DNA of 61,383 bases, taken from a virus (Duplodnaviria > Caudoviricetes). The notes beneath the pieces are model-generated. The model did not search any database and was not told the DNA's origin. It was given only the letters and a program-made list of their open reading frames with translations. The DNA lies in the IMG/VR virus record IMGVR_UViG_3300036833_000473, positions 1-61,383 of that record, one strand, 5' to 3'. Below are positions 2,431-50,571 of this stretch, piece by piece. The translations under genes and the position numbers were made by a program. Positions within the stretch are counted from its first letter, which is position 1, and every line of letters starts with the position of its first letter.

Positions 2431-2442
2431 AAATGTTTGAAT

Positions 2443-2472
2443 ATTATGGCATTTTTATCACTGATAATTCAA
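2443..2472 (-). promoter_or_regulatory. Sigma70-like promoter with palindromic operator
   Basis: Minus strand TTGAAT-18-CATAAT; palindrome TTATCA-c-TGATAA at 2455-2467. Confidence 0.55.
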
Positions 2473-2522
2473 GGTTAGCAGAGAGTGCGGGAGATGGGTG
2501 GCGCGAGGGATATCATAGGGCC

Positions 2523-4049
2523 ATGGCCACAGCCCCGGCTCAGCTCGAGTACTTCGTCAAGAACTTCGACTTCCTGCCGCCGCACGTGCAGGCGGCGGTG
2601 CGCGAGCGCCTGGAGGGCGCAATCATCGGCGACCGGCCGGAAGAGGCGCGTAACAGCTTCCTGCCCTTCGTGCGCCGCGTCTGGCCGGGCTTTATCCACG
2701 GCCGGCACCACGACGTCATGGCGGACGCCTTCGAGCGCATTGAGAGAGGGGAGCTCAAGCGCTGCATCATCAACATGCCGCCGCGCTCGACCAAGAGCAA
2801 GCTGACCAGCGTCATGTTCCCCGCCTGGTACCTGGGGAAACATCCAGAGAAGAAAATATTCGAGGGCAGCCACACGGCATCGCTCGCCATGGACTTCGGC
2901 CGGGATCTGCGCAACCTGGTGCTGACGCCGGAATACCAGAAGGTCTTCCCGGGGCTGCGCCTGGCGCAGGACTCTCGCGCCGCGCACCGCTGGAGCACGC
3001 ACGTGGGCGGCGAGTACTTTGCCGTCGGCAAGACCGGCGGCGCCGCCGGCCGCGGCGGGGACCTGGTGATTCTCGACGACCCGCACAGCGAGCAGGATGT
3101 CCTGAAGAACGCCAAAGCCGAGTTCGAAAAGACCTGGAAGTGGTACCTGGCTGGTCCACGGCAGCGCCTGCAGCCCGGCGCGGCAATTCTGGTGGTCATG
3201 ACCCGCTGGGGCGAGATGGACCTCACCGGCCAGCTGATCAAGCAATACCTGGAAGACGAAAAAGAAGTCGAGCGCTGGGAAGTGATCGAGCTGCCGGCCA
3301 TCCTGCCATCCGGCGACGCGCTGTTCCCGGAATTCTGGAAGATCGAGGAATTGCGCGCCACGCGAGCCATCCTGCCGGTGGCACGCTGGCAGGCCAACTA
3401 CCAGCAGGCGCCGACCAGCGAGGAAGGCGCCATCATCAAGCGCGACTGGTGGCAGAACTGGGGCGAGCCCCTGCCACCCTTGTGCGAGTACCTGGTGATG
3501 AGCTGGGACACGGCCTTCTCTACTGGCGACAGCGCCTGCCGCAGCGCCTGCATCGTATGGGGCGTATTCCGGCAGAAAACCCACGAGGACCCGCCGCGCG
3601 TCAAGACCGGCATCATTCTGCTCGATGCCTGGGCGGCGCGCGTCAACTTCCCCGAGCTCAAAAAGAAAGTCAAAGAGCTCCACGCCCAGTGGAAGCCGGA
3701 CTCGCTCGTGATCGAGAAGAAGGCCTCCGGCGGACCCTTGATCCAGGAGCTCTTCCACGCCGGCCTCTATGCCCAGGAGATGAACCCCTCTCGCTCCCAG
3801 GACAAGGTGGCGCGCACCAACGCGGTGGCCGACCTGTTTGCGAGCGGCATGATCTGGGCCCCGCTCGGCCAGCGGTGGGTGGAGCAGGTACGGGAAGAGA
3901 TGGCGGCGTTCCCGCATGGCGAGTACGACGACCTGCATGATGCCGGGGTGTGGGGCCTGTTGCGGCTGCGGATGGGAAATTTAATTCACCTGGGAAGCGA
4001 TGAGGAGGATGAGGAATGGCAGCCGCGGCCGGCGCGGAAATTCTATTGA
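2523..4049 (+). CDS. terL: Terminase large subunit
   Basis: MPPRSTKS Walker A, LVILDDP Walker B, VMTRW motif, SWDTA / IEKKASG / YDDLHD nuclease motifs; start set at ATG 2523. Confidence 0.95.
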   Translation: MATAPAQLEYFVKNFDFLPPHVQAAVRERLEGAIIGDRPEEARNSFLPFVRRVWPGFIHGRHHDVMADAFERIERGELKRCIINMPPRSTKSKLTSVMFPAWYLGKHPEKKIFEGSHTASLAMDFGRDLRNLVLTPEYQKVFPGLRLAQDSRAAHRWSTHVGGEYFAVGKTGGAAGRGGDLVILDDPHSEQDVLKNAKAEFEKTWKWYLAGPRQRLQPGAAILVVMTRWGEMDLTGQLIKQYLEDEKEVERWEVIELPAILPSGDALFPEFWKIEELRATRAILPVARWQANYQQAPTSEEGAIIKRDWWQNWGEPLPPLCEYLVMSWDTAFSTGDSACRSACIVWGVFRQKTHEDPPRVKTGIILLDAWAARVNFPELKKKVKELHAQWKPDSLVIEKKASGGPLIQELFHAGLYAQEMNPSRSQDKVARTNAVADLFASGMIWAPLGQRWVEQVREEMAAFPHGEYDDLHDAGVWGLLRLRMGNLIHLGSDEEDEEWQPRPARKFY

Positions 4050-4066
4050 AACCTGACCTACGACTT

Positions 4067-4747
4067 CTCTCAGCTACCAGGCCGCCGAGCGGGCATTCCA
4101 GTGTTAAGGCCGGGTCTCAGTTACCGGGCCGCCGGGCAGGCACTGTGACCCAACAGAACAGGGGCGCCAATGGCGGTCTCAGCTTACCACGCCGCTGAGC
4201 AGGCATTACGGCACGAGGCGATTATCATCGGTTTCGTCCCAGCTACCACGCCGCTAGGCAGGCACTGCAGAACAAATGCCGAAACGGTCTCGAGCAACCA
4301 GGCCGCCGGGCTGGCACTGCGATTTTACACCATCTCCCAGCTACCACGCCGCTGAGCAGGCACTGCGACGATCACGCGCAATGAGCGCATAATCACGCAT
4401 CCACTGAGTCCCAGCTACCAAACCGCTGAGCGGGCATTGCGACTCGGACAAGAGAATCGATGCTGTCTCGTCTCAGTTACTAAGCCACCGAGCAGGCAAC
4501 TTCCAAGCCTCCGTTATCCGGGTCTCAGTTTCCAAGCCACCAAGCAGGCATTGCAACCCCGCAAGCGCGGTGCGGCGCGGATCCGGTACGTCATCTCGGT
4601 TACCAAGCCACCGAGCAGGCATTGCAACACGGCGTAACTATCTCAGCCACCAAGCCACTGAGCAGGCGCTGCAACCTCCCGTGAAAGATTGTAAGACGTC
4701 CCTGAAAGGCTGTCTCAGCTATCACGCCGCTGAGCAGGCACTGCAAC
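4067..4747 (-). CRISPR. CRISPR array, 12 degenerate 36-37-bp repeats and 11 spacers (10-38 nt)
   Basis: Repeats start at 4067, 4114, 4176, 4236, 4287, 4334, 4408, 4470, 4522, 4593, 4640, 4712; minus-strand consensus GTTGCAGTGCCTGCTCAGCGGCTTGGTAGCTGAGAC with 3' hairpin; 10 bp from the effector stop codon. Confidence 0.92.
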
Positions 4748-4757
4748 AGTCCCTATT

Positions 4758-6503
4758 CTATACTGTTGATCCCATGCCCTCCTCTCCCTCGCTTGGCGAG
4801 CGGTCCCCGGAACCCGGCAAAATCTCCGGACTATCTGACTGATTCTTCGTCGGTGCCGCCTTGCCGCTCGCCAGCAGATTGATGGCCGCATTATGGTCCT
4901 GATCCCAAAGCTCACCGCACTGACCGCAGCGGTGCAGCACGCTGGCCGCCTGGTCCCAGACCTCGGCGTGCCCGCAGGCGTGGCAGGTGGAAGTGCTGTA
5001 GGCCGCCGGCACGATGCGGACTTCAACTCCCTCGCGCTTACAGGCGTTCACTACCGCGCCGCGGAAGACCGAGGGACTGAGCATCTGGCGGTAGCTGCCA
5101 ATGGTTTTATTCTTTTCATCTTCCTTGGGCTCGGCCACCTGGCGCAGGTCGAACTTCTCGAGGATGACGGTGGCGTATCTAGCCGCCAATTGAGCGGCAA
5201 AGATGCGGTACTGCTCGCGCACGCGCAGGGTCATCTGGTCCTGCTGGTTGCGCCACCAGTTGGTGAGGTGCAAGTATTGCCTGCGCCAGCTGGTGGCGCT
5301 CGCAAATATCTGTGCGTCCTCGTCCAGGCGATGGTCGCCCCACCAGCGGATCAGGCTGGCCAGGCGGTCGCCGCTGCGCCATTGCGCCAGTGTCAGAGTG
5401 CGGCGTTGCCACTCGCTATCGAGCGACTGCCCGCCCAGCCACTTCACCAGCTCGGGCTGAAACTGGTCGCGCGCGCAGTCGGTAATGGAGCGCAGGTCGT
5501 TGACCTTTTTGAATTGCGCGATGTCGCTAGCAGGAACCAGCACCTCGCTATGGCTGCCCGCGTCATCCTGCCAGTAGGCCACACGGCCGCCGGCAGGCAG
5601 GAGGCGCCAGCCGATGTCGATGGCTACGGCAGCGCCGGGGTTCTTGACGGGAACCGGCGGCAGAGCCACGCTCACGTTCAACGCCCATTGCACCTTGCCG
5701 GCCAGCAGGCGCCGCGTGGCGCTGACGCTCTTGATGCGCGCCAGAGGCGGGATGTCGCGATGGTAGACGATGGGCAGGCTTACCCAGAGGGGCGTGCGGC
5801 TCTTCTCGCCGGAGCCGATACGCACGCGCGCGTAGCGCCACTTTTGTCCCGGGGTGGCACTGTCGATCTGGAAGAAGGTGTGCGGCCCCTCCACGCAGGC
5901 TTCCACGCTCGCGCCGTCAATGATCTGCGCCGTAAGCGTGCCCTCGCCGCGGAAAGAGCGGTACTTGAGCTCGCCCAGCTTGCGGCCGGTGTCGGCCGAC
6001 TGGATGACGGCGTTATAAGTCCCCCAGAACAGGCCCAGGCCCTTGGGGCCGGCCGCCCGCCGCGCGCGCTTAACGCGCCGGTTGCGCAGAGCGTTGAGCG
6101 CGTCCAACTGCTCCTGGCGCGCGGCGTGGCGCGCCTTCTGGGTGGCCTTCTGGTGCTCGAGCAGCATGCCGAGAGCGGAGCGTACCCGCGCCAGCTCGTC
6201 GTCGAGGTCGGGAGTCGCGACCTTGGTGCGGGCCTTCTGGCTCCGCGTCTTCTTCTCTTTCCAGAGCGCCTCCTTGCGTTCGCGCAGCTTCTCGATCTCC
6301 ACCTGCGCCTCGTCGCTCATGACGCGCCGGTAACCCGCGGTATGGTAGCGCTCGACGGTGACCAGCACGTTCCACAGGCGGCGCGCCAGGCGCATCTGCA
6401 CCAGCGCCTGGTCTTCGTTTAAGACGGGCGCGATGCGCGCGGGAACCGTGCCGTACTGGTAAACCATGGAACGCGTTTTCTGAGAGTCCTTCTGGTGTTT
6501 CAT
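4758..6503 (-). CDS. cas12m: Type V CRISPR effector, Cas12m (V-M/V-U1)-like, 581 aa
   Basis: LFWGTYNAV, FRGEGTLTAQI, RVRIGS, WVSLPIVYHR, RuvC-I AIDIGWR, RuvC-II ILEK, Zn finger CHAC..CGQC, RuvC-III DQDHNAAINL; adjacent array; RBS GAAAGG. Confidence 0.85.
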   Translation of the reverse strand: MKHQKDSQKTRSMVYQYGTVPARIAPVLNEDQALVQMRLARRLWNVLVTVERYHTAGYRRVMSDEAQVEIEKLRERKEALWKEKKTRSQKARTKVATPDLDDELARVRSALGMLLEHQKATQKARHAARQEQLDALNALRNRRVKRARRAAGPKGLGLFWGTYNAVIQSADTGRKLGELKYRSFRGEGTLTAQIIDGASVEACVEGPHTFFQIDSATPGQKWRYARVRIGSGEKSRTPLWVSLPIVYHRDIPPLARIKSVSATRRLLAGKVQWALNVSVALPPVPVKNPGAAVAIDIGWRLLPAGGRVAYWQDDAGSHSEVLVPASDIAQFKKVNDLRSITDCARDQFQPELVKWLGGQSLDSEWQRRTLTLAQWRSGDRLASLIRWWGDHRLDEDAQIFASATSWRRQYLHLTNWWRNQQDQMTLRVREQYRIFAAQLAARYATVILEKFDLRQVAEPKEDEKNKTIGSYRQMLSPSVFRGAVVNACKREGVEVRIVPAAYSTSTCHACGHAEVWDQAASVLHRCGQCGELWDQDHNAAINLLASGKAAPTKNQSDSPEILPGSGDRSPSEGEEGMGSTV

Positions 6504-6703
6504 ATAGCTAACCTTTCTTTCTTTTTCCCTTCGAGCATATGATGCTCGAGTCCGCCGAACTCGCCGGCCCAGTCGAGCAGGTTGGCGAGCCTCTGGCCGA
6601 CGAACTTGCGCGCGAGCGGCGCGGCCTTGACGATGACTCCATCGCGCGTAACCACCTCGATGGTGAACACGCGGCAGCTGATCCAATGCGTCAGTTCTTT
6701 CAC
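6500..6703 (-). CDS. Small phage hypothetical protein
   Basis: 4-bp overlaps with both neighbours. Confidence 0.7.
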   Translation of the reverse strand: MKELTHWISCRVFTIEVVTRDGVIVKAAPLARKFVGQRLANLLDWAGEFGGLEHHMLEGKKKERLAI

Positions 6704-6918
6704 AGCCAGGTCTCCACGATCACCGGATCGTCGCCGTAGTTGCGCGGGATACAGGTCAGCCCCTGCCCGGCCAGCATGGCGCGCAGAACAGCCAGGTCAT
6801 CGCTGAAGGCGACCAGACCGTCCGGGCGGTCGCCCTCCCAGGCGCGCACCACATACCAGTCCGGGAAATCGCGCGGATGGTCGTAGATGGTGTACAGGCG
6901 GACCTGCTCGACTTCCAA
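6700..6918 (-). CDS. Small phage hypothetical protein
   Basis: IYDHPRDFPDWYVVR...DDPVIVETW motif; coupled in operon. Confidence 0.7.
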   Translation of the reverse strand: MEVEQVRLYTIYDHPRDFPDWYVVRAWEGDRPDGLVAFSDDLAVLRAMLAGQGLTCIPRNYGDDPVIVETWL

Positions 6919-6919
6919 T

Positions 6920-7276
6920 TTACCCTTCCTCTGACTCTGGTAGAAATATTACCGCGGCTTTTTTCAGCCGCCGCAGATAATCCTGATCGGCGGTTTTGGA
7001 GGGCGCCCATCGAAAGCGGGCTCCGCCGAAAGTCTCCTCCACTTTCTCAAGCAAGCCACATTCAAAGAATTTCTTGGTATGGAGACTGACCGTTCGCCGA
7101 GGTCCTTTCAATTCGGTGGCAATGTCAAGATTGGAAAACCATCTGGTCCGACGAGCGCTGCTGAGCAGGTGGTAGACCTTAACTTCTGGCTCTGAGATCT
7201 GATCCATGCGCCAGACTGTACCACTACGTAGCATGGCTTGGAACGGCTTGGTATAGACAGGCGTATACGTCCTCAC
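6920..7276 (-). CDS. Winged-HTH protein
   Basis: WFSNLDIATELKGPRRTVSLH...GLLEK pattern. Confidence 0.6.
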   Translation of the reverse strand: MRTYTPVYTKPFQAMLRSGTVWRMDQISEPEVKVYHLLSSARRTRWFSNLDIATELKGPRRTVSLHTKKFFECGLLEKVEETFGGARFRWAPSKTADQDYLRRLKKAAVIFLPESEEG

Positions 7277-13806: not shown

Positions 13807-13848
13807 GGTTTTACCTCCTAATGCGTGCCGGGGTTGTGAACCGGCCCT

Positions 13849-13873
13849 CCCGCATTACCCCCGCTAATGCGGG
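13849..13873. terminator. Intergenic hairpin
   Basis: CCCGCATTA / TAATGCGGG inverted repeat, no clear U-tract. Confidence 0.35.
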
Positions 13874-13886
13874 GTCACTCTGCGAT

Positions 13887-21954: not shown

Positions 21955-21990
21955 GCCTCAGCTATCAGGCCGCTGAGTAGGCATTACTGG
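21955..21990 (-). repeat. Solitary CRISPR-repeat copy A
   Basis: gcctcagctatcaggccgctgagtaggcattactgg; CTCAGC/GCTGAG stem as in the array. Confidence 0.85.
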
Positions 21991-22035
21991 TCTGAGCAGC
22001 TCGAGTGCTTCCCGGGCATTATGCACCACGCCCGT

Positions 22036-22071
22036 GCCTCAGCTATCAGGCCGCTGAGTAGGCATTATCGG
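22036..22071 (-). repeat. Solitary CRISPR-repeat copy B (81 bp from A)
   Basis: gcctcagctatcaggccgctgagtaggcattatcgg; overlaps the VRR-NUC stop codon. Confidence 0.85.
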
Positions 22072-22359
22072 TCGGAGCAGTTCGAGTGCTTCGTGTGCAT
22101 TATGCACTACGCCTGCAATAGCGCCGGCACACCGCCACTCTTTCAGGCGCGCCGTTTGCAGGGGCGTAGGGATGTTTCCGGGCCTCTTGACTTCAAGCTC
22201 AAAATGGCGGCCGGCGACCACTCCGTACAGGTCGGGATCGCCGGCTGTGCCGAGCGCGGTTCCCCAGCGCTTGCGCACCACCAGGCCCGGAATTTGCCTT
22301 AGGGCCTTTACGATCGCGCGCACCAGCGAGCTTTCCCGCGCTGGGGCAGGGCGCGCCAT
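22039..22359 (-). CDS. VRR-NUC domain nuclease
   Basis: ESSL, GDPDL, LEVKRPG..TPLQ. Confidence 0.88.
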   Translation of the reverse strand: MARPAPARESSLVRAIVKALRQIPGLVVRKRWGTALGTAGDPDLYGVVAGRHFELEVKRPGNIPTPLQTARLKEWRCAGAIAGVVHNAHEALELLRPIMPTQRPDS

Positions 22360-22363
22360 AGTT

Positions 22364-23134
22364 TTATCGCGTGGTCTCTTCGGCCGTGTAGTCGGTCGCG
22401 TCGATCATCGCTGGGGTGAGCAGCTCCTTCATCTTTTGGTGGTATGGCTTGAGCGCGCGCACTTCCTTCTCCCCCAGGCGCCGGGAGAGAGAAAGCACCA
22501 GCCGCGCGTAGGCGATGCCGCCCTCGTTGTTGGCCTTCTCGAGCGTGAGCCGGGTGATGGTGGCCCAGTAGGGGATCTGCGCGCTCAATAGCTGCATGTT
22601 GTATTGCGTAAACGCCTTGAGCGAGGTAGGCGGCACGCTCAACAGGTGCGGCAGAATTTCGCCGGGTCGCAGCAGGAGCAGTTGGCGGATGTCTTTGCAG
22701 GCTTGCCCGGCGCCGGGGTTGCCGTTGGGCAATACCGCGGTGCCGAACTGGGCGTAGTGGCAGTCGGCGCAGCGGCCGCCGGGATCGCCGATGCCGACCA
22801 GGCCGTCTTTCGAGGTGCAGTCCGGGGGCTTGTGGCCGCCTGAAAAGTTGCCTCTCCAGAACAGGCGTGCCGAGCGGAAGGCGGTCAGGATGCCTTCGAG
22901 CTCCTTTTCGGGCTGCTCGCCGGCGAGAGTCTGTACCCGGAAGGCCAGGCTGCCGCCGCTTGGCATCTGAATGCGGGGAAAGTTGAGAATTGAGAAATTG
23001 GGGCTGAGGCTTTCATTGAGCAGCTCGATGGTGCTCTGGCTGCTTTCCGGCCGCAGCAGGGCGTAGGGTTCGACCATCTCGGGGTCTTTACCGAGAGTGG
23101 CGAGGTCTTGTGGGGGTTGTGCTTGTTTTGGCAT
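22364..23134 (-). CDS. Putative ssDNA-binding replication protein
   Basis: FPRI, PPDCTS.DG, CADC..QFG, ACK, PPTSLK motifs; acidic tail. Confidence 0.6.
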   Translation of the reverse strand: MPKQAQPPQDLATLGKDPEMVEPYALLRPESSQSTIELLNESLSPNFSILNFPRIQMPSGGSLAFRVQTLAGEQPEKELEGILTAFRSARLFWRGNFSGGHKPPDCTSKDGLVGIGDPGGRCADCHYAQFGTAVLPNGNPGAGQACKDIRQLLLLRPGEILPHLLSVPPTSLKAFTQYNMQLLSAQIPYWATITRLTLEKANNEGGIAYARLVLSLSRRLGEKEVRALKPYHQKMKELLTPAMIDATDYTAEETTR

Positions 23135-23227
23135 AATAGTTGACATTCCTTTGTTGGTTAGTGGGTGTTTGACTAATCGCTGCGTCTCTGGAAGGGACGC
23201 AGCGAAAAATTGGGACTGTCCCGTCCC

Positions 23228-23263
23228 GTCCCGAGTATCAAGCCCTCGGGCAGGCATTTCAAC
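23228..23263 (-). repeat. Solitary CRISPR-repeat copy C
   Basis: gt-cccgag-tatcaagcc-ctcggg-caggca-tttcaac: same 36-nt layout, covaried stem. Confidence 0.85.
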
Positions 23264-23753
23264 GCCATGTTTTTAACACCTGGACGCGGTATGTGGGTTC
23301 GATGCGCACCACCTTGGCGAGCTCCGGCGGCAGCATCGACAAAGTGTTTTCGATGGAGCCCGCGTTTTCCTCGAGCTGGCGCACATAGGTGGTGAGCGAC
23401 TTGGTGGAGTACACCTCTTTGACGTAATGTGCCAGCCCGCATTCTTTGAGCGCTTCGATCACCTGCTCGTCGGTGGCGTGCGCCGCCGGATAGATCCACG
23501 GCTCGCGGTGTGGCGAAAGCGTGTAGCCTTCGATCTTGATCTTCTGGTACCCGCCCTCTCCGAAGTAGCTCAGCACCTGCGGTTCGAGCAGGCGCAGGCG
23601 GGCTTCGACCGCGCGGGTTTCGGCGGCCAGCTCGCGCTTGCGGATGGTCAGGCGGACCAGGTCGGTGAAGGCCTGGTGCTCGGGAGTTTCCTCTACTAGC
23701 TGATGATCATTGGGGAACAGCATTGCCTTTAACCTCGCTAAGGACACTTTCAA
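23259..23753 (-). CDS. Hypothetical replication-module protein
   Basis: Coiled-coil start; operon position. Confidence 0.7.
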   Translation of the reverse strand: MKVSLARLKAMLFPNDHQLVEETPEHQAFTDLVRLTIRKRELAAETRAVEARLRLLEPQVLSYFGEGGYQKIKIEGYTLSPHREPWIYPAAHATDEQVIEALKECGLAHYVKEVYSTKSLTTYVRQLEENAGSIENTLSMLPPELAKVVRIEPTYRVQVLKTWR

Positions 23754-25116
23754 TCAGGTCGGCGCGCCGCTCGAGCGCGCCCTCAATAATCTCGTCAATG
23801 GAGTTTCGGATGGTAAGGTGGTAAAACACAACCGGCCGTTTCTGTGGCGGCCGGTGGATACGAGCTCTGCTTTGCACGTAGTCGGTCAAAGAAAATCCGA
23901 ATGAGTAGTAGATACCGATGCGTGCGCGGGTGAGCGAGATGCCCACGCCGCCGGCCTGGATTTGCACGGCGAGCACGCTGGGCCCGTCGCTTGTACTCGT
24001 CTGCCACAGCTTGAGCTCATCCACGTTCCCACTTAGCTCGGCCGAGGTGCGGCCGGCTTTCTGAGCGGCGCGGTGAATGGCCTTGAGATCGCTTCTGAAG
24101 CGCGCGAAGATGACCACGGCTTCGTCCGGGTCCAGATCTTCAAGCAAGTCTTCCAGCAGATCTTCTTTGCGGGTATCGACCTGGTGCTCGAATCCTTCGT
24201 CGTCTTTGAGAGTGCCGCCGGTGATCTGTTGCAGGCGCAGCAGGCGCACTAGAGCATTGGCCGCGGTGACTTCCTTGCCTTCTTCGATCCAGGCCAGGAG
24301 GTCGCGTTCCATGTCGGCGTAGAGCCTGGCGGCGCGTTCCCCGAGGCCGACAGTAAGTACCTGGTCGAGCTCGGGCGGCAGTTCGAGCACTTCGTCGGTG
24401 ACGCGATAGGCAATCGAATAGAACTTACGGTTGAGCTCTTCGAGCTCTTTATATCCTTTTATCTCTTTATCGTAATAGCCGCCCATGATGGCGTGGCGCA
24501 GCTTGAAGCTGCCAAACGTCGGATCGAGGACACTGGGATCGAGGAAGCGGAACTGGCCCCAGATGTCGAGCGGGTTGTGTGCCATGGGCGTGCCGGTGAG
24601 CGCCAGGCGGTAGTGGGCGCGCAGGCCCAGCTGGCCGAGAAAGCGCGAGTTGCGCGAGGATGCCTCTTTGCATTTGTGGCTTTCGTCTGCGATGACGAGC
24701 GGCCATGCGTTGATGAGTGCCCAGTGGGCGAACGGCTCTGCTCTGCCGGACTCATAGTTGATGCAGATGGCCAGGCGTTTCCGGCGTGCCGTGGCCCAGG
24801 CCAGCGCGTTGCGCGCCCGCTCGGTCTTCTCGGCGATCGTGCCGGAGCGGTCGTCGAGTGCAAGGAATTCATACGGTACGCTGGCGAACTGTGCAAACTG
24901 TGCACGCCAGACTTCCACCACGCGCAGCGGGCAGAGAATCAGAACGGGCGACAGGTTGAAATCGCAGGTAAGATCAATGGCAATTTTTGACTTGCCGCAG
25001 CCCATGGCTAGTGCTAGTAGTGCCCCGTGCCGGCCGCTTTTCCACAGCCTCTCCACAAAGTGATAAGCTGCGACCTGGTGCTTCCAGCTGGCCACTGGCG
25101 TGCGTACGCAATTCAT
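23707..25116 (-). CDS. SNF2-family helicase
   Basis: MGCGKS, ADESH, ALTGTP, GGVGISLT, QSRARIHR. Confidence 0.92.
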   Translation of the reverse strand: MNCVRTPVASWKHQVAAYHFVERLWKSGRHGALLALAMGCGKSKIAIDLTCDFNLSPVLILCPLRVVEVWRAQFAQFASVPYEFLALDDRSGTIAEKTERARNALAWATARRKRLAICINYESGRAEPFAHWALINAWPLVIADESHKCKEASSRNSRFLGQLGLRAHYRLALTGTPMAHNPLDIWGQFRFLDPSVLDPTFGSFKLRHAIMGGYYDKEIKGYKELEELNRKFYSIAYRVTDEVLELPPELDQVLTVGLGERAARLYADMERDLLAWIEEGKEVTAANALVRLLRLQQITGGTLKDDEGFEHQVDTRKEDLLEDLLEDLDPDEAVVIFARFRSDLKAIHRAAQKAGRTSAELSGNVDELKLWQTSTSDGPSVLAVQIQAGGVGISLTRARIGIYYSFGFSLTDYVQSRARIHRPPQKRPVVFYHLTIRNSIDEIIEGALERRADLIESVLSEVKGNAVPQ

Positions 25117-25379
25117 GTCTTGATCCCTGCGCGCTGTGCGGCTATACTCAGCGCCAGTAGCAGTGTGAGGTCTTCGGGGCGGGGTGGCGTAAGCGGGTGA
25201 GAAGTATAATACGTGAGCACTCTGAGTACTTGACCTCCCAGGTCGGGGGCTAAGTACAACTCTATGAGTGCCAGCACTAACGGGTCATGGTAGTAAATCG
25301 CGGATTCGGGTAAGCTTTGTCTCGGCTTCTCGACTGCCGAGCAGGTATCGGTAGAAGATTGTGACTTACACATCGTCAT
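25113..25379 (-). CDS. Hypothetical protein (start uncertain)
   Basis: ATGA overlap with helicase. Confidence 0.45.
   Translation of the reverse strand: MTMCKSQSSTDTCSAVEKPRQSLPESAIYYHDPLVLALIELYLAPDLGGQVLRVLTYYTSHPLTPPRPEDLTLLLALSIAAQRAGIKT
25319..25354 (-). repeat. Solitary CRISPR-repeat copy D
   Basis: gt-ctcggc-ttctcgact-gccgag-caggta. Confidence 0.65.
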
Positions 25380-25449: not shown

Positions 25450-25487
25450 GTCTCGGCTTGCTATGGCCGCCGAGCGGGCATTGAGGT
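25450..25487 (-). repeat. Solitary CRISPR-repeat copy E
   Basis: gt-ctcggc-ttgctatggcc-gccgag-cgggca-ttg. Confidence 0.78.
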
Positions 25488-25491
25488 TTTT

Positions 25492-25520
25492 ATTCTTGAC
25501 CTTGCAACCCAAATTGTCAA
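25492..25520 (-). promoter_or_regulatory. Candidate promoter of the replication operon
   Basis: TTGACA-17-AAGAAT on the minus strand. Confidence 0.5.
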
Positions 25521-25601: not shown

Positions 25602-26165
25602 ATGTCCAACAAAGGTTCCAAATCGGGTTCCAAGGCAGCGCCTTCGAAGAAAGTCGCGAAAGTCAAGAGTAATCGCGGGCGCAAATTAGAAAAAGTTCAA
25701 ATCAGTGTGCGGCTGGATAAGCCGTGCATGGATGTTCTTTACCGCCTGGTCAAGACGGAAGGCTATCGCATCACCGATCTTCTCGAGCGCGGCGCCATTT
25801 ACGTGTTGAGAGAAGAGATGGGCGAGTCGCCGGAGATGAAGGCCTTGCGCTTTATGATCGGCGAGATGCCGGCCAAGTCTCAGCGGAGACTGGTGTGCTG
25901 TTTCACATATTTTTGTTTGACTCAGGATTTTTCTATTACCGAGCGTCACGTTGAGGAGATGATGAACGGGATTCTCGATGCCTGGGAGCACGATCCACGT
26001 CACGAGAGATCGCTGCTGGAGTTCTACGCGCAGATGCGGGACAAGCGTAGCAAGGGTGGGGGCGAAGATGGGGATGGGAATGGGGACGGTGGCGGTTCCT
26101 CTGGTTCGCCTTCGGGAATGGCTTCGCCCAGTACCGTGGTTGCTTCTTCTCCAGGCCAAATGTAA
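25602..26165 (+). CDS. Putative transcriptional regulator (RHH-like)
   Basis: RBS AAAGGAG; KVQISVRLDK...ITDLLERG; divergent from replication operon. Confidence 0.6.
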   Translation: MSNKGSKSGSKAAPSKKVAKVKSNRGRKLEKVQISVRLDKPCMDVLYRLVKTEGYRITDLLERGAIYVLREEMGESPEMKALRFMIGEMPAKSQRRLVCCFTYFCLTQDFSITERHVEEMMNGILDAWEHDPRHERSLLEFYAQMRDKRSKGGGEDGDGNGDGGGSSGSPSGMASPSTVVASSPGQM

Positions 26166-26272
26166 ATAACAGTTGCAAAAAATACGGGTTGCTCATCAGT
26201 TTCGCCCAGTACCGTGGTCGCTTCTTCTCCAACGCCAAATGTGAATAAACAGTTGCAAAAGATACGGGTTGC
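26123..26272 (+). repeat. Imperfect tandem duplication, 78-bp period
   Basis: ttcgcccagtaccgtggt...gttgcaaaa.atacgggttgc at 26123 and 26201. Confidence 0.9.
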
Positions 26273-35543: not shown

Positions 35544-35909
35544 ATGGTTTTGTTTTTGGATCACTGGCAGCGGTTGAGCGTCATCGCCCTGCTGGGCGTG
35601 CAGCGCGCCACCGTGGCGGAAATGCGCACGTTCTGGCGATTGCAGGATCTACTAGCCCTCTCCGACGCGGAGAAGGAGGCCATCGACTACCGGGTGGTCG
35701 TTGAAAATAATCTGGAGCAGTTCCAGTGGAACCGGGCCAAGAGCCTGCCGGCCAAGCAATACGAAGTCAGTGAGGCCGAAGCGGCCCGCATAAGGCGCTG
35801 CCTGGAGGAATGGCCGCAGTTCTTCACCGCGGTCGATCGCCAGTGGCTGGAGCCGCTGCTCGAGCAGCTGGCCGACGTGAAGGCCCAGCCGGTGGCCGTA
35901 CAGCGATGA
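35544..35909 (+). CDS. Hypothetical protein
   Basis: RBS AGGAGG. Confidence 0.7.
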   Translation: MVLFLDHWQRLSVIALLGVQRATVAEMRTFWRLQDLLALSDAEKEAIDYRVVVENNLEQFQWNRAKSLPAKQYEVSEAEAARIRRCLEEWPQFFTAVDRQWLEPLLEQLADVKAQPVAVQR

Positions 35910-37843
35910 TCCAGAAGCTCCAGTTCCGCCCCGGGATCGTGCGCGAGCTGACCGACTACGCCAACACCGGCGGCTGGTACGACGCGGACAAAGTGCGTTT
36001 CAGAGCTGGCTGCCCGGAGAAGATCGGCGGCTGGCAGGCGGTGACGCCCGAAATTTTTCAGGGCAGCTGCCGCCAGCAGCACGAGTGGAGCACGCTCGCC
36101 GGAGTGCGCTATCTGGCGCTCGGGACTCACCTGAAGCTTTATATCCTGTGGGGTTCGGCTTATTACGACATCACGCCGATCCGCGCCACCTTCGGGCCCC
36201 TGCCGGCCGACACGGCCTCGGGCGGCGGTACGGTAGGGCCGTTCCTGACTTACCTGCGGCCCAACCAGATTGAGGTGCACGTGCCGGCCCACGGCCCGGC
36301 GGCCCCCGGCGATTTCGTGACGTTCTCGGGAGTGACGACCCCGGTCGATGTGTATCCCGTGGCCGAGCTGAACGGCGAGTTCCAGGTGGTCAGCGTGCCC
36401 GACAGCGACCACATCGTGATCGCCGGCACCGAAACCATGACCAACCCGGGAATCACCGGCGGCGGCGCCGGGGTGAACGCGACTTTCCAGATCGAGGTGG
36501 GAGCGGACGTGGCCATCATCGGCACCGGTTGGGGCGTGCCGCCCTGGGACGGCTACCAGGACCCGCCGATGACCAGTGCGCAGGCCACCGGCTGGGGAAC
36601 CAGCTTCGACCCGACCCTGTTGAGCCCGGCAGGCTATGACGTCAACCAGATCCGCCTCTGGGACCTGGACAACTTCGGCGAAGACCTGGTGGCCAACATC
36701 CGCCAGGGGCCGATTTACTACTGGCACCAGGCGCTCGGCCTGAACTCGCGCGCGCTGCCGCTGACGCAGAGCGTCACGGTGCCCAACCCGCCGGGCGCGG
36801 ATATTGTTTTTACGCCCGACAATCCGCCGAACTTCGCCACGCAGATTATCGTGAGCCCCAACGACCGGCATCTGATCGCGCTCGGCTGCGATGACATTGG
36901 CGCGACCGCGGCCGACCCCATGCTGGTGCGCTGGTCGGACGCGGAGAGCGCCTACACCTGGACGCCGACGCGTTCCAATTCCGCCGGCAGCCAGCGGCTC
37001 AGCCTGGGTTCGTTCATCGTTTGCGGCCTGCGCACGCGCCAGGAGATTCTGATCTGGACCGATTTAGGGCTGTGGAGTATGAAATACATTGCCACGCCCT
37101 ATATCTTTGGTTTCGATGTCGTGTCGGAGGGGCTGAGTATCATCGGGCCGAATGCCGGCATCAACGCGGCCAACGTGGTCTTCTGGATGGACCGCGGCAT
37201 TTTCTACAGCTATACCGGCCAGGTCCAGGAGTTGCCGTGCACCGTCAAGGACTACGTCTTTTCCAACCTGAATTACACGCAGCAGTACAAGATCTTCGCC
37301 GCGCACAACCATGCTTTCAGCGAAGTCCTCTGGTTCTATCCGAGCGCCGCCAGCAATGAGAACGATTCTTACGTGCTTTACAACTACGTCGATCAGACCT
37401 GGTCGATCGGCACGCTGGTGCGCACCAGCTGGCTCGACATGGGACGCAGCAATTACCCGACGGCAACCGACACCTTCGGCATTCTCTACTTCCACGAGCT
37501 GGGCGACGATGCCGGACCCGACCCGCTGGTGGCATATGTGGAAAGCTCCGACCTCGACGACTCGGGCGGCGACAAGTTTCTCTTCATGAGCCGCCTGTTG
37601 CCCGACGTCCTGTTCCGCGGCAACTCGCCGACCCAGACCGTGGGCGTCACCATCCTGGCCCGCAACACGCCGGGCTCGCTGAAGCAGACCGCCGCGCAGA
37701 TGACGATCGCACCCACCACGGTGCAGAAATTTGTCCGCGTCCGTGCGCGCCAGCTTTCGGTGCGCGTGGAAAGCGACGCTTTGGGCGTGGGCTGGCGCCT
37801 GGGAACTCTGCGCGCCGACCTGCAGCCGGACGGGCACCGCTGA
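35906..37843 (+). CDS. Tail nozzle / DNA stabilisation protein (P22 gp10-like role)
   Basis: GWYDADKVRFR.G.PEKIGGW, WDLDNFGEDL, VRWSD, WRLG.LR.D..PDG.R. Confidence 0.75.
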   Translation: MIQKLQFRPGIVRELTDYANTGGWYDADKVRFRAGCPEKIGGWQAVTPEIFQGSCRQQHEWSTLAGVRYLALGTHLKLYILWGSAYYDITPIRATFGPLPADTASGGGTVGPFLTYLRPNQIEVHVPAHGPAAPGDFVTFSGVTTPVDVYPVAELNGEFQVVSVPDSDHIVIAGTETMTNPGITGGGAGVNATFQIEVGADVAIIGTGWGVPPWDGYQDPPMTSAQATGWGTSFDPTLLSPAGYDVNQIRLWDLDNFGEDLVANIRQGPIYYWHQALGLNSRALPLTQSVTVPNPPGADIVFTPDNPPNFATQIIVSPNDRHLIALGCDDIGATAADPMLVRWSDAESAYTWTPTRSNSAGSQRLSLGSFIVCGLRTRQEILIWTDLGLWSMKYIATPYIFGFDVVSEGLSIIGPNAGINAANVVFWMDRGIFYSYTGQVQELPCTVKDYVFSNLNYTQQYKIFAAHNHAFSEVLWFYPSAASNENDSYVLYNYVDQTWSIGTLVRTSWLDMGRSNYPTATDTFGILYFHELGDDAGPDPLVAYVESSDLDDSGGDKFLFMSRLLPDVLFRGNSPTQTVGVTILARNTPGSLKQTAAQMTIAPTTVQKFVRVRARQLSVRVESDALGVGWRLGTLRADLQPDGHR

Positions 37844-43413: not shown

Positions 43414-43444
43414 AAACGCGGACGTGAAAGCGTCCGCGTTTTTT
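43414..43444 (+). terminator. Rho-independent terminator
   Basis: AAACGCGGACG-tgaaag-CGTCCGCGTTT plus T-tract, between convergent genes. Confidence 0.8.
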
Positions 43445-45965
43445 ATTGGGGCGGAACTTCGGGCGGCGCCGCGCTGGCGGCATCCTGCGCCATCTGGTTT
43501 TCCTTGAGAATGCGCTCCTCGGCGCCGGCGGCATGATCAAGCAGCGCCTTGTGCCGCTCGGTATTGGTGTCGGCCAAGTGGCGCGCCTGCGCGGCCTGCT
43601 CGCTGATCAGGTGGCGCGTCGATTCGGCCTGCACTTCCATCTGCGTGCGGCGTTCCTCGCTCGCCATCTGCGCGGAGGCGATCTGCCCCTTCTGCTGCGT
43701 GCGCGCACTCTCGAGCTGCAGCTTCGCCTGGTCGGTCTGCGCCTTCTGGTCCGCTGTCTTCTGCTTCAATTGCAGCTCGGCTTGCTGCTGCTGCACCAAG
43801 GGGTCCTGCTGCGCCTGTTGCGCCTGTTGCGCCTGCTGCGCCTGCTGGTTGATCCCGGTGAGCTTCTGTGCCGCGGCGGCGATCACGCTCGACAACTGCT
43901 CTTCCACTTCCGGGGGCAGTTTGGCGCCGAGCGGCGGCAGAGGCACGCCCATCTGCTGCTCGATTTCCCGGCGGTACTGGAAGGCCAGGTGCTCGTTGAG
44001 GTGCGCGTAGGAGGCCGACTGAATCGAGGGCGACAGCGGGTTCTGCGCCATGGCGGCCTTCATCTTGGGGTCGTCGGAATTGATCAGGCCCATGTGGACG
44101 ACGATGTGGCTGGCGTGATCCTGCCACTGGAAGGCCTTGACCGGCTTAGAGGTGAGCAGCGCCATGTTCTCCGCCACCGGGTCCATGGGCTCGACCGCGC
44201 TCTTGTCGGGCACGATCTGGTCGGCGTTGTCGATGCCCAGGACTTCCAGCATGGAGCGGTGCAGCAAGGGTAAGTTATAAAGTTGCGGCGCCTGGTTACT
44301 GAGCTGCAGCGCGGCCTGGTATTCCATCACGCGCTGCGCCATGGTGGAAGCGGCCGGGTCGCTCACCGGGACAATGGAAACCGACTGGTGGTAGTCGTTG
44401 TACTTCGCCGAGCGTGGCACATGGTTGGGCGGATCGTAGTCGTAGTCGCCGCCGGTGTGGTCGCGGATCAGCTCGGCCACGATGGCGAGCTCCCTGCCGA
44501 GCGCGGTGTGCATGCGCGACTGCACCGCGGTGATGACTTCGGTGGCGCGCTCGATCAAGGCCAGCATGGTGCCGACCGGCGCGTTCTGCGTGGATGCGCT
44601 CAGGTCGAGATCGGCGATCGAGGCGAAGCTCTTGCCCTCATCGACCAGCATCTGCAGCAGCTGAAAAAGAACGGCGCTCGGCTCTTTGTACGGCAAAAAC
44701 GCAATCGAGTCCAGGATCTTGCCGGCGGCCACGTCCACGTCGCGGAACTCGCCTGGCTGAATCGGATCGGCGTCTCCTTTAATGCGCAGGGTGCGCGACT
44801 TCAAGCCGCCGGGCAAATTACTCAGCGTGCCGGCGTCCACCAGCTGGCGCAGAATCGACGTCGAGGAGTGGCCGATGCCGCCAATCAGATGGATCAGGCC
44901 AAGGCCGTACGGACCCTTCCAGGGAACGTAGCGGTAGTGCACCCAGTTGAGCGTCTTGGCGTGTTCCAGGTCGCCCTGCCGCCAGTTGCGGTAGATCGAC
45001 AGAATCCGGTTGCTGTCCGATTCGAGCGTGATCACGTAGGGCAGCGGCTCGCCGTTCTCGAGAATCAAATCTGTGGTGACCTCCCACAGAGTGATCAGCT
45101 CGCTGCGGCTGTACGAGGGCGAGACGCCGCTCAGGCGGACCACCTTCTCTTCCAGGCTGTCCATCTCCACGGGCGAGCGGTTGAGCGCAATGTCGCGATA
45201 GAAGCCGATGGCCTGCAGGCGCCGTACATCGCCATAAGACTTCCTCATGACGTGGGTGTAGCGCGGACAGGTTTCTAAATTGGGAAACCCGAACGGCATC
45301 AGAAAATCGTTGGCCGGCACGAACTGTGCCACCGGCCGCTTGAGCAATGGATCGAAGCAGACTTTCTTGAAGGCCGAGCCATCGACGGGCAAGGCGAACA
45401 GCAATTGTTCGCTTTCGTCGCGATATTCCAGCATTTTGTCGGTCAGCCAGTAATTCAGATCTGAAGCTACCCTTTTGGCTTGCTGGATTTTCAGCTCATT
45501 ACTCTCGCCCACCACCTTGGCATTCGCCGGGCCTTCCGGTGGAAACAGGCGCGTGATCGATTTCGATTGAAATCGGACAGCGGCCTCCAAAATCATCGGG
45601 TGCACCACGCCGCAGGCACCGGGCCAGGGCATCTGCCGGTCTTCGTCTTTGATGCCCAATAAATCCATGCCTTTGGTGAGCGCGTCTTCCCAGTCGCGCC
45701 GGCTCGATTTGTCTTCATCCACGGCAAAGCGCAGATCGCTCGCGATGCTGCCGAGCAAATTATCTGGTAAATACTCCGCCAGGTTGGCGCCGAAGGGCGC
45801 CTTCTCAAGAGCGCGTTCCTCGGCGGGGCCGTCCAGCGAAACCTCGACCGAGCCGTCGGGGAGTTCTACACTGGCGCCATTGGGCGGTGGAGTTAAATCG
45901 AGAACCGCGCTGGCCAGGCCATGGTGAGCGCCATTGGGGGGCGAGAGTAAGGGCCGGTCAAACAT
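43443..45965 (-). CDS. Portal protein
   Basis: FGANLAEYL, PWPGACGVVHP, GSAFKK, LRQLVDAGTLSNLPGG, PVGT.LALIE; Q-rich barrel tail. Confidence 0.88.
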   Translation of the reverse strand: MFDRPLLSPPNGAHHGLASAVLDLTPPPNGASVELPDGSVEVSLDGPAEERALEKAPFGANLAEYLPDNLLGSIASDLRFAVDEDKSSRRDWEDALTKGMDLLGIKDEDRQMPWPGACGVVHPMILEAAVRFQSKSITRLFPPEGPANAKVVGESNELKIQQAKRVASDLNYWLTDKMLEYRDESEQLLFALPVDGSAFKKVCFDPLLKRPVAQFVPANDFLMPFGFPNLETCPRYTHVMRKSYGDVRRLQAIGFYRDIALNRSPVEMDSLEEKVVRLSGVSPSYSRSELITLWEVTTDLILENGEPLPYVITLESDSNRILSIYRNWRQGDLEHAKTLNWVHYRYVPWKGPYGLGLIHLIGGIGHSSTSILRQLVDAGTLSNLPGGLKSRTLRIKGDADPIQPGEFRDVDVAAGKILDSIAFLPYKEPSAVLFQLLQMLVDEGKSFASIADLDLSASTQNAPVGTMLALIERATEVITAVQSRMHTALGRELAIVAELIRDHTGGDYDYDPPNHVPRSAKYNDYHQSVSIVPVSDPAASTMAQRVMEYQAALQLSNQAPQLYNLPLLHRSMLEVLGIDNADQIVPDKSAVEPMDPVAENMALLTSKPVKAFQWQDHASHIVVHMGLINSDDPKMKAAMAQNPLSPSIQSASYAHLNEHLAFQYRREIEQQMGVPLPPLGAKLPPEVEEQLSSVIAAAAQKLTGINQQAQQAQQAQQAQQDPLVQQQQAELQLKQKTADQKAQTDQAKLQLESARTQQKGQIASAQMASEERRTQMEVQAESTRHLISEQAAQARHLADTNTERHKALLDHAAGAEERILKENQMAQDAASAAPPEVPPQ

Positions 45966-48952: not shown

Positions 48953-50161
48953 TCAGCTGGCGAGTGGCAGGTGGTAGTCCAGGATCCGCGTGGACTGGCT
49001 CATGCGCTCACGATAACCGGGAACGAGGTTCAGATAGTGGTTCGCCGTAATCTTGACGTCGCTATGGCCGAGCATCTTGGAGACGACGAAGAGGTTCTCG
49101 CCGCCGCTTGCCACCAGCATATTGATCGCGAAAGTATCGCGGAAGCGGTGGCAGGCGCCAGGCAGGCCGGCAAGAGCGAGAGCCTTCACCACGAGCGCGG
49201 TCGTTTCGCGGATGGCTGTCAGATATCGGCCCGCTCCCAGTTCTTCGGAAAAATTGCCGCCCGCGTTGAGGACGGCCAGCGCCTTGCGGTAGTCGCCCTC
49301 GGGTTGGAAGAAGAAGGCACCAGATCCCGGCAGCTGCCTCAGGGCTTCGACCGCAGCGAGGTTCAACTCGATGGGCAGGCCGATACGCTTGCGGGTTTTG
49401 ATCACCACGAAATCCAGGATGCGGTCCGCGCTGATCGAGGCGCGCTGCGCGAAGGTCGCATCCGAGATGCGCATGCCGCTATACACCATCAGCAGGATGA
49501 GGGCGCGGGTGCGATCCCGGTCGGCTTCCGGCATAAGCCCGATTGCCTGGATGACTTTCGCCAGGTCGGCGTGGCTGAAGGCCTCCCGTGCGTGCCCGGA
49601 GGGCTTGGAGAACGTCAGGGCCTTTTTGGCGGCTGGCGACTTCACGATCCAGTCCATTTCCTTGGCGTAGTTGAAGAACACGCGCAGATGCGTCAGGCGG
49701 CCGATCTTGGTGCGCTGCTCCCATTCGCGCCCGTACTCGCTGAAGTATTGCTCGAAGAGGTACGGCTCGACGGCGCGCAGTTCGACCACCCCGTGGGCTT
49801 CGGCGAAGCGGCGAAAGTGGCCGACGGCGGTGGTATAGAGTTTGACCGTATTGGGTGCCTTTCCGCTTTTGGCCTTAAGGAATTTGGCTTCGGCTTCGGC
49901 GATGCTCATCACGCCAGTGGTGATAGCTTGCGCCACGCCGCCTCCATCGGGGGAGTGCGGGTTCAGCATCTCGCGGATCTTGAGTTCTGCCATGCCGAGC
50001 GAGCGAGTGCTCAGGCTCTCGCGAATATACTTGCCGGCAATTCGGCCTTGTACCCAGAGTGGGCAATCGCAGGCAAGGTCCTTCGCCGTGCAGGCCGGAG
50101 CGTGGCGCCGGTAAGGGGTCAGGTGGTCGCGCTTTTTGCGTGGGGTTTGGGTGTTGGACAT
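48953..50161 (-). CDS. int: Tyrosine integrase
   Basis: SGMRISD, K, HRFRDT, LGH, HY catalytic motifs. Confidence 0.93.
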   Translation of the reverse strand: MSNTQTPRKKRDHLTPYRRHAPACTAKDLACDCPLWVQGRIAGKYIRESLSTRSLGMAELKIREMLNPHSPDGGGVAQAITTGVMSIAEAEAKFLKAKSGKAPNTVKLYTTAVGHFRRFAEAHGVVELRAVEPYLFEQYFSEYGREWEQRTKIGRLTHLRVFFNYAKEMDWIVKSPAAKKALTFSKPSGHAREAFSHADLAKVIQAIGLMPEADRDRTRALILLMVYSGMRISDATFAQRASISADRILDFVVIKTRKRIGLPIELNLAAVEALRQLPGSGAFFFQPEGDYRKALAVLNAGGNFSEELGAGRYLTAIRETTALVVKALALAGLPGACHRFRDTFAINMLVASGGENLFVVSKMLGHSDVKITANHYLNLVPGYRERMSQSTRILDYHLPLAS

Positions 50162-50373
50162 GAGGTCAGTATAGCCCATTCCCACACATGAAATTCGTAC
50201 GGTATTTTTGAGGTTATTGAAAACAGGAAGGTTAGCGTGTACGAAAATACTAGAAGGTCTTCTTCAAATTGCATTTACAATCTACGATATATCTTTAGTA
50301 TCAATATCTTAGCAGTCACCATAATCACCATTTATCCCATCCATTGTACAACCTTGTACGCCCGGAGGTCCCC
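50162..50373. other. Candidate attP region
   Basis: AT-rich non-coding stretch beside int with four GTAC-core boxes. Confidence 0.45.
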
Positions 50374-50535: not shown

Positions 50536-50571
50536 GTCCCAGCTACTGGGCCGCTAAGCAGGCATCACCAA
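50536..50571 (-). repeat. Solitary CRISPR-repeat copy F
   Basis: gt-cccagc-tactgggcc-gctaag-caggca; stem closes with G.U only on the minus strand. Confidence 0.78.

Follow-up and report, generated by a model that had tools for sequence, protein, structure and literature searches.

The DNA analysed here, hereafter the window, is the whole IMG/VR virus record IMGVR_UViG_3300036833_000473, a linear sequence of 61,383 bp with 62.7% G+C and a CheckV completeness of 95%, which carries at positions 4067 to 6503, on the minus strand, a gene for a 581-amino-acid (aa) Cas12m protein followed by a CRISPR array with diverged repeats. It is likely that this cassette is a real type V-M CRISPR-Cas12m system of a temperate soil phage, with inherited guides, repeats selected for their RNA fold and silencing by binding only. 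The array is a non-adaptive, worn-down guide array of a known V-M kind in an unusual state. A resemblance to type V-M had been noticed in an initial annotation made from the letters alone, and it was confirmed by the Cas12m fold of the effector, the adjacent repeats that form a pseudoknot and the lack of an adaptation module.

The effector and its gene

By sequence, profile and fold, the effector is a genuine Cas12m. In a sequence search of the PDB the best chain was 23vw ("Cas12m", E 4e-83, residues 24-548), followed by Cas12m2 (8hio, E 2e-21) and another Cas12m at about 1e-21, with TnpB proteins appearing from E 3e-6. The PADLOC profile Cas12u1 matched residues 12-547 over profile positions 3-530 of 533 (E 5.6e-93), and the only Pfam match was the Cas12f1-like TNB domain (PF07282, E 6e-13). 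The NCBIfam TnpB model NF040570 reached 57 bits against a cut-off of 100, covering the C-terminal residues 406-545 only, and the TnpB models of the insertion sequence (IS) families IS607 and IS200 reached 30 and 25 bits against cut-offs of 350 and 425, respectively. An AlphaFold2 model, for which 40 relatives served as the alignment, had a pLDDT (predicted local distance difference test) of 86.6 and showed long helices over residues 30-151. With this model as the query, the top four Foldseek matches were all Cas12m, with query TM-scores (TMq) of 0.66-0.80, the next ones being at about 0.4 (TnpB 0.33-0.43, Cas12f about 0.4). The Cas12m-like identity proposed initially is thus upheld by the PDB search, the PADLOC profile and the predicted fold, and the grouping with IS-associated TnpB which had been allowed for was not found, the TnpB scores being far under their cut-offs and the fold unlike.

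The RuvC triad D296/E449/D536 is invariant across 40 clade members, and the zinc ribbon CxxC...CxxC (C507, C510, C526, C529) nearly so. The gene is full length and keeps every residue that is invariant in its clade. In the alignment to MmCas12m2 the three acidic residues stand opposite its H, D and D. Cas12m proteins with D-E-D, H-D-D and N-D-D triads are described as binding double-stranded DNA (dsDNA) without cutting it, processing their own precursor CRISPR RNA (pre-crRNA) and needing no trans-activating CRISPR RNA (tracrRNA) (PMC11013384).

The ATG of cas12m (6503-6501) overlaps the TGA (6502-6500) of a small upstream open reading frame (ORF) of 67 aa, and the coupling by an ATGA overlap given in the initial annotation is therefore correct. 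Because the G+C content at third codon positions (GC3) drops to 0.39 in the in-frame extension upstream of ATG 6503, against 0.75 in the 67-aa ORF and 0.84 in cas12m, this ATG is taken as the true start. Neither the 67-aa ORF nor the 72-aa ORF before it had a match in Pfam or PHROG. At the other end of the gene, the TAG stop codon (4760-4758) is separated by a 10-nt gap (4757-4748) from the first repeat, which starts at 4747. The array, as described earlier, thus abuts the gene and leaves no room for a leader, which is absent between the two. Likewise, the absence of cas1, cas2 and cas4 was corroborated: Pfam searches of the record gave no match to Cas1, Cas2 or Cas4 with E ≤ 1, and the same searches, run as a positive control, gave a match in 9-10 of 14 control genomes. 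The position of the cassette at the end of an operon holds insofar as the gene terminates a long leftward block of replication genes. On the other hand, a terminator-like hairpin (6971..6954) just upstream of the last three genes, a pattern match from a consensus scan that found 6 sites with 3.3 expected, could make these genes and the array a separate unit.

Divergence of the repeats and conservation of their fold

The array consists of 12 repeats of 36-37 nt (Table 1), and Tandem Repeats Finder detected no array in the window. A covariance model (R1) built from 49 repeats, namely the window's own repeat 1 and 48 from other loci, recovered all 12 of them with E from 5e-7 to 0.07. Their mean column identity is 81%, with 11 of 36 positions fully conserved; the conserved columns are those of the crRNA handle, and variation is greatest over the first five bases of the repeat. 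The repeat end was initially described as a hairpin followed by AC. A 6-bp hairpin followed by two bases is indeed present in every repeat, but the two bases are AC in only 8 of the 12. The spacers between 36-nt repeats measure only 10-38 nt (36, 11, 35, 16, 26, 38, 10, 15, 23, 26 and 11 nt). No tracrRNA anti-repeat was found, the repeat model reaching no better than E 0.32 on the plus strand, and there is no inverted copy near the array, which is consistent with the earlier remark that the locus leaves no room for a tracrRNA.

In the probable source DNA run, aligned at 80% likeness, a low-depth contig variant (2.6 vs 12.3) skips 133 nt from 4204 to 4338, about two array units, and a second low-depth piece replaces the array segment between 4170 and 4445; both are weak hints.

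The repeat fits two crossing stems, one between positions -28..-26 and -17..-15 and the other between -23..-18 and -8..-3. Both crossing stems of the crRNA of PmCas12m correspond to stems of the window repeats, the second of them pairing -23..-20 with -6..-3 (preprint 10.64898/2026.03.26.714355). Among 49 distinct repeats of related loci, 93.4% of the cells were paired and 129 were double-change cells; none of 500 shuffles reached the observed score, and slid controls were at most 45% paired. For the window's 12 repeats together with six others, 97.5% were paired, with double changes in 8 of 9 pairs. In the 12 array repeats alone, 94.4% of the pseudoknot cells were paired, compared to at most 55% in slid controls. 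Selection on the RNA fold inside the window array is likely, not proven, and the array would illustrate a long inheritance without adaptation, during which repeats drift and the RNA fold is kept.

A possible lower limit of the unit size

Measured end to end, the periods of the window array are 72, 47, 71, 52, 62, 74, 47, 51, 60, 62 and 47 nt, and 8 of the 11 units fall short of the 70-79 nt that are usual in the family. This norm comes from a survey of 635 periods of up to 100 nt in 72 distinct arrays beside related genes, of which 509 fell between 70 and 79 nt, 13 between 80 and 100 nt, 12 between 67 and 69 nt, 76 between 53 and 66 nt, 23 between 44 and 52 nt, 2 between 40 and 43 nt and none under 40 nt. 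The survey used a crude de novo detector. Of 156 sources, duplicates counted, it reported an array in 107; in the window it settled on a wrong motif, and for some loci its consensus was short.

Between 29-nt handles, the guides of the window are 18-45 nt long. Its three shortest units, of 47 nt, correspond to a 29-nt handle plus 18 nt and equal the compact unit of two relatives, L032 and L033. The array of L032 (2853-4535) has 36 compact units, with 33 of 35 periods at 44-50 nt, and the periods of L033 (7755-9089) are mostly 46-51 nt (both sorted by hand). The spacers of these two arrays are 17-21 nt long, and since their repeats are conserved only from about -29 or -30, the repeat in both is a bare 29-nt handle. 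PmCas12m forms a 17-bp heteroduplex and works best with 17-nt guides (preprint 10.64898/2026.03.26.714355). We infer that an inherited array has eroded to, and not below, a functional minimum of the handle plus about 17-18 nt. Such a stop of the unit size would be a natural read-out of the minimal Cas12m guide and useful for the design of compact multiplexed arrays.

Search for targets and proposed mode of action

The array and lone-repeat guides matched the phage itself at chance level only (blastn-short; best 15/16 nt, E 0.075), and a seed-prefix search with 18 guides gave at best a 12-nt prefix, for which about 0.13 were expected. The array region matched 27 of 50,697 phage records, all with E ≥ 3, and 8 of 72,556 plasmid records (best E 0.7). 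In the fetched loci, 82 at first and then 167 (1.26 Mb), no guide had a match outside repeat sequence. Conversely, the loci of the relatives gave 7 short hits in the window outside cas12m and the array, and by their coordinates none of them seemingly lies in an array of the relatives. A sharing of short spacers with relatives, considered for a time, does not hold in the 82 fetched loci. No RNA run was listed as containing window sequence. Of two DNA runs, the probable source run covers the full stretch, and a second one, from soil, contains fragments of a relative's cas12m, about 95% alike. The initial proposal that the guides are used against competing elements or host genes thus found no target for any guide in these searches.

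The mode of action that we propose is as follows. Since a leader is absent, the array would be transcribed by read-through from cas12m. Cas12m itself would cut the transcript about 29 nt from the 3' end of each repeat, and each crRNA would consist of the 29-nt handle and the following 18-45 nt. By analogy with characterised Cas12m, the complex would bind dsDNA flanked by a protospacer-adjacent motif (PAM), leave it uncut and block transcription or replication, the likely targets being plasmids or competing phages, met either in the lysogen or in the course of an infection. The guides would be inherited and not acquired; without Cas1-Cas2 the repeats would drift apart under selection for the RNA fold, and the units would shrink to a limit of about 47 nt, matching the handle together with the duplex of roughly 17 nt on which Cas12m relies. 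Finally, the six lone repeats would probably feed native sequences to the same Cas12m.

Several observations weigh against the cassette being such a binding-only system with a selected fold and a minimal unit. The covariation within the window's 12 repeats was not above that of shuffles (101 of 500 did equally well; the changes are mostly wobble), and the case for fold selection in the window array therefore rests mainly on the slid controls and the wider family. In repeat 8 one pair is broken and a bulge is present, and the final base is T or G rather than C in 4 of the 12 repeats. The floor of the unit size in the window could be due to chance with n = 11 units, and the lower bound is not absolute, because 3 of 39 periods of the relative L002 are 40-43 nt. 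The D-E-D triad leaves a nuclease activity possible. Moreover, no protospacer was found for the 12 array and 6 lone-repeat guides in the phage, in 50,697 phage and 72,556 plasmid records and in 167 loci; as no guide has a target, the purpose suggested for the guides is a proposal.

Repeats dispersed over the phage genome

With filters off, the covariance model found in the whole window, besides the 12 array repeats, six others with E from 2e-7 to 0.017, all on the minus strand. Of all sequences in the window, the repeat at 23263..23228 matches the family model best, and it forms all 9 pseudoknot pairs, with a stem sequence that differs from that of the array. The gap in which it sits is non-coding (GC3 is 0.47 at 23257..23100, and the overlapping ORF aligns with PHROG 23155 no earlier than its residue 87); behind the repeat come first a small hairpin with a U-run and then a strong 10-bp hairpin (fold z-score -3.7). 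Two more share the leader of a leftward operon: the one at 25487..25450 begins 4 nt after a promoter-like TTGACA-N17-AAGAAT (25520..25492), and the ORF overlapping the other, at 25354..25319, has a GC3 of 0.58. A further two belong to an 81-nt tandem duplication (21955-22116, minus strand) of the endonuclease gene end and a repeat-like unit. The duplicated units, at 22071..22036 and 21990..21955, end in GGC, and all 49 family repeats have A at -2. It is possible that this duplication records an array growing by copying of its units and not through Cas1-Cas2. The sixth repeat, at 50571..50536, adjoins the stop codon of an ORF on the plus strand (50344-50535). It is some 350 nt upstream of the integrase gene and could be part of an attachment site.

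Repeats outside the array recur among relatives. Ten whole records (G001-G010) were scanned, and five of them hold repeats away from the main array: G001 has two, one of which is its best hit, G004 has two, G005 a mini-array, G008 a second array and G009 ten dispersed repeats. The repeat-model scan of the whole records showed no off-array repeats in G002, G003 and G010. In G006 and G007 there was no model hit at E ≤ 0.001, though the de novo detector found arrays in loci from both. G009, a jumbo phage of 201,946 bp (the record of locus L126), encodes a Cas12m relative with an array, and its ten lone repeats are at 5222, 7620, 46773, 53583, 72751, 105824, 124139, 136027, 136827 and 174582. A -10-like box lies 7-8 nt upstream of at least six of these, in two cases a ribosome site and an ATG come within 13 nt after the repeat, and six are antisense to the flanking genes. 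The last count led us to drop the idea that lone repeats are always co-oriented with local genes. An exact copy of the array repeat is also present upstream of the cas12m relative in locus L011 (105-140).

Single repeats outside arrays are known from two other contexts. Lone repeats behind promoters are a hallmark of RNA anti-CRISPRs (Racrs), candidates for which are defined without cas association (PMC10651486), and standalone repeats acting as gene regulators are known inside cellular cas loci (bioRxiv 10.1101/2023.03.03.530964). What Racrs, regulatory crRNA-like RNAs and the window's lone repeats have in common is that each is a single repeat of CRISPR type located outside an array, in some cases immediately after a promoter-like site. 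They differ in that Racrs have by definition no cas association, whereas the window's lone repeats match the effector and array of their own phage (PMC10651486), and in that the regulatory mini-arrays lie within cellular cas loci, whereas the window's repeats are spread genome-wide, far from the cas locus (10.1101/2023.03.03.530964). In a literature search no paper was found on lone repeats matching a phage's own Cas12m, though the supplementary lists of Cas12m loci (PMC11013384) and of solitary repeats (PMC10651486) may include relatives of this locus or lone repeats of V-M type.

These repeats are the basis of an alternative that we regard as possible, with a rather low probability: that Cas12m mainly controls the phage's own transcription units via the lone repeats, the array being secondary. 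Such control could work by RNA processing, by hiding of ribosome sites or by roadblocks on the phage's own DNA. It would account for six off-array repeats that all lie on one strand, with E values below that of the best plus-strand hit, and for their placement 4 nt past a promoter-like site, 21 nt before a start codon and upstream of the integrase gene. The recurrence in five of ten relative records, among them G009 with its -10-like boxes, and the precedent of regulatory standalone repeats in cellular CRISPR loci (bioRxiv 10.1101/2023.03.03.530964) point the same way. However, seed matches of the lone-repeat guides elsewhere in the genome stay at chance level (at best the 12-nt prefix mentioned above), binding to the own flank would need the 3' end of the repeat to act as a PAM, which none of the Cas12m PAMs reported in the sources suggests, a simple leader model does not fit all cases with six of the ten G009 repeats antisense, and two of the six window repeats end in GGC in a family with A at -2 in 49 of 49.

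With similar caution, one may think of Cas12m and genome-wide lone repeats as a system which takes the native flanks of the repeats as guides and is either a switch of own genes or a weapon resembling omega RNA. The use of a guide from the native flank of a lone repeat indeed recalls the logic of the omega RNA of TnpB, with which Cas12m has the RuvC and zinc-ribbon core in common. If so, the phage would have an RNA-guided switch over transcription units of its own, for instance at gene starts, in the integrase region and at the leader of the early operon or, alternatively, a weapon that binds relatives in which this sequence occurs but the repeat is lacking. The 81-nt duplication would be an example of array growth without Cas1-Cas2, and the relatives' units of 46-50 nt would be the outcome of selection that went down to the length of the mature crRNA. 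Lone repeats, if functional, would suggest that phage genomes harbour RNA-guided control of genes, or RNA-guided rivalry.

Less likely alternatives: neutral erosion, decoys and TnpB

A neutral decay of the array is an unlikely explanation. The cassette would then be a relic, with an unused array eroding neutrally and cas12m intact because the decay is recent or the protein has another role. Repeats only 81% alike on average, the 8 of 11 units below the family norm, guides with no target found and the lack of significant covariation within the 12 repeats all agree with this, as do the equally eroded distal array parts of the relatives L001, L002 and L105; the low-depth variant lacking 133 nt hints weakly at ongoing deletion. 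Neutral erosion, however, would not be expected to leave the pseudoknot cells paired at a rate well above that of the slid controls, to confine the fully conserved columns to the handle with the first five bases the most variable, or to spare every unit from falling under the handle plus 18 nt. Nor does random decay predict the 36 near-even compact units of L032, and cas12m is full length with all clade-invariant residues.

Far less probable is a role of the lone repeats, and perhaps of the eroded array, as RNA decoys which soak up the Cas12m of the host, of plasmids or of rival phages. A position of lone repeats behind promoters is the Racr hallmark (PMC10651486), V-M systems are common on plasmids (PMC11656645), and the repeat at 23263..23228, whose stem is unlike that of the array, is directly followed by hairpins with no obvious guide. 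Yet Racr candidates are defined without cas association and this phage has a matching effector and array (PMC10651486), and decoys would compete for the phage's own Cas12m too.

An IS-borne TnpB with an omega RNA in place of a CRISPR system is ruled out for practical purposes: the C-terminal RuvC and zinc-ribbon part of the effector does match TnpB models weakly (57 bits; PF07282), but these models stay under their cut-offs over residues 406-545 only, the full-length matches and the far better fold match are to Cas12m, and a 12-repeat array lies downstream, whereas TnpB has no array. IS ends were not seen, no search having been aimed at them.

Relatives and comparison with known systems

With a limit of E ≤ 1e-10, a word-based protein search returned 57 proteins; some 47 are metagenomic and 45-65% identical, several of these on contigs of 26-87 kb. 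In IMG/VR, 51 viral contigs of up to 202 kb carry relatives with 23-65% identity (best segment; one partial), and the rarity implied by the initial annotation was thus set too high. GTDB species representatives hold only distant relatives (up to 33% identity) in metagenome-assembled genomes of many phyla. Type V-M is enriched on plasmids and is also present in some prophages (PMC11656645), viral effectors from a landfill virome group with Cas12m (PMC12607003), and MvCas12m of the myxophage MV-1 has been presented as the first phage Cas12m (bioRxiv 10.64898/2026.09.14.751636). Against this claim of priority, both the GenBank phage KX853510, deposited years ago, and the 51 IMG/VR contigs also carry relatives. 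With these contigs, KX853510, a review, the landfill virome and the 2026 preprint, the kind of system is already known; the window adds a well-supported case to the few described virus-borne V-M systems, and such systems are common.

MvCas12m, compared by its description, is likewise encoded by a phage beside an array, with a D-E-D triad, no cas1/2/4, no tracrRNA and no protospacers found. It has 610 aa and one consensus repeat with 8 spacers, as opposed to 581 aa and diverged repeats in the window. The 197-kb virus Rctr197k (KX853510) has a gene "similar to transposase" with 30% identity (96% coverage, E 5e-57), likewise a full-length homologue followed by an annotated CRISPR whose 36-nt repeats end in the same hairpin and AC. 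Unlike that of the window, its array is mostly regular (periods 71-76 nt), with identical repeats near the gene. The closest solved relative is PDB 23vw (577 aa, "CRISPR-associated DNA-binding protein Cas12m"), which shares the D, E and D motifs with the window protein. MmCas12m2 (8hhl/8hio) and GoCas12m (8pm4) have the same fold (TMq 0.74-0.80) and a similar size, and their systems, as described in the sources, also have the array directly downstream, no tracrRNA, no adaptation genes and a pseudoknotted handle at the same positions. However, the window protein is only 21% identical to them and has D-E-D instead of H-D-D, and its system is borne by a phage and not by a plasmid or chromosome, with diverged repeats and mostly shorter units.

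The flanking genes are not conserved among relatives (ORFs of L001-L082 and L083-L159 compared with the window). Beyond cas12m and its antisense shadow, sharing was found in L119 (terminase, portal and one more gene) and L157 (one gene), with a weak terminase match (25% identity) in L107, L108, L109, L121 and L154 and in L139, and an SNF2 match in L070 and L136. In L119, a 13,652-bp IMG/VR contig (3566-10327), terminase and portal are 61% and 67.5% identical to those of the window, and its cas12m, which stands with an array in the same place beside the terminase, is only 31% identical. This pattern suggests, from the gene comparison, a cassette exchange at a hotspot.

Genomic context

The cassette forms the far end of a leftward, minus-strand block of replication genes running from about 25.1 kb to 4.7 kb, whose members include an SNF2 helicase, an endonuclease, a primase-polymerase and a UvrD helicase. 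The plus-strand large terminase gene converges on the array, and its stop codon lies 17 nt past the final repeat (4067). Further genes are those of a tailed phage (Table 1), which is probably temperate because it encodes a tyrosine integrase.

Table 1. Positions in the window of the cassette, the lone repeats and selected genes
Feature	Coordinates	Strand	Remarks
cas12m, 581 aa	4758..6503 (6503..4758)	-	Translation
67-aa ORF, no known family	6500..6703	-	GC3 0.75; ATGA overlap with cas12m
72-aa ORF, no known family	6700..6918	-	GC3 0.85; GTGA overlap with 67-aa ORF
Terminator-like hairpin	6954..6971	-	Consensus scan, pattern match only; just upstream of three-gene cassette
CRISPR array, 12 diverged repeats of 36-37 nt	4067..4747	-	
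Array repeats 1-4	4747-4712, 4675-4640, 4628-4593, 4557-4522	-	
Array repeats 5-8	4505-4470, 4443-4408, 4369-4334, 4323-4287	-	
Array repeats 9-12	4271-4236, 4212-4176, 4149-4114, 4102-4067	-	
Lone repeat	23228..23263	-	41.8 bits, E 2.4e-7; window's best match to family model
Lone repeat	25450..25487	-	23.8 bits, E 0.0026; leader of leftward operon
Lone repeat	25319..25354	-	25.3 bits, E 0.0012; same leader, upstream of SNF2 helicase gene
Repeat-like unit, first duplicate copy	22036..22071	-	20.2 bits, E 0.017; overlaps last 10 endonuclease codons
Repeat-like unit, second duplicate copy	21955..21990	-	21.3 bits, E 0.0098; ends 21 nt before ATG 21933
Lone repeat	50536..50571	-	25.9 bits, E 0.0009; after terminator-like hairpin
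Large terminase	2433..4049	+	Pfam Terminase_6C, E 1e-7; converges on array
SNF2 helicase gene	25116..23707	-	
Endonuclease gene	22359..22039	-	PHROG 93 endonuclease aligned to residues 7-99
Virion structural protein	35810-37843		Tailed-phage gene
Portal	43443-45965		Tailed-phage gene
Tyrosine integrase	48953-50185	-	Pfam PF00589, E 1e-11
Lytic tail protein	56298-58745		Tailed-phage gene

Two other elements were seen in the window. At about 26125-26270, between the divergent leftward and rightward gene blocks, there are two direct copies of about 70 nt (found by eye), which are possibly operator-like. A Type-P5 twister ribozyme (13828-13884, minus strand) is set among small leftward genes and matched over the full model length with 57.2 bits (gathering score 37.6, E 3e-9).

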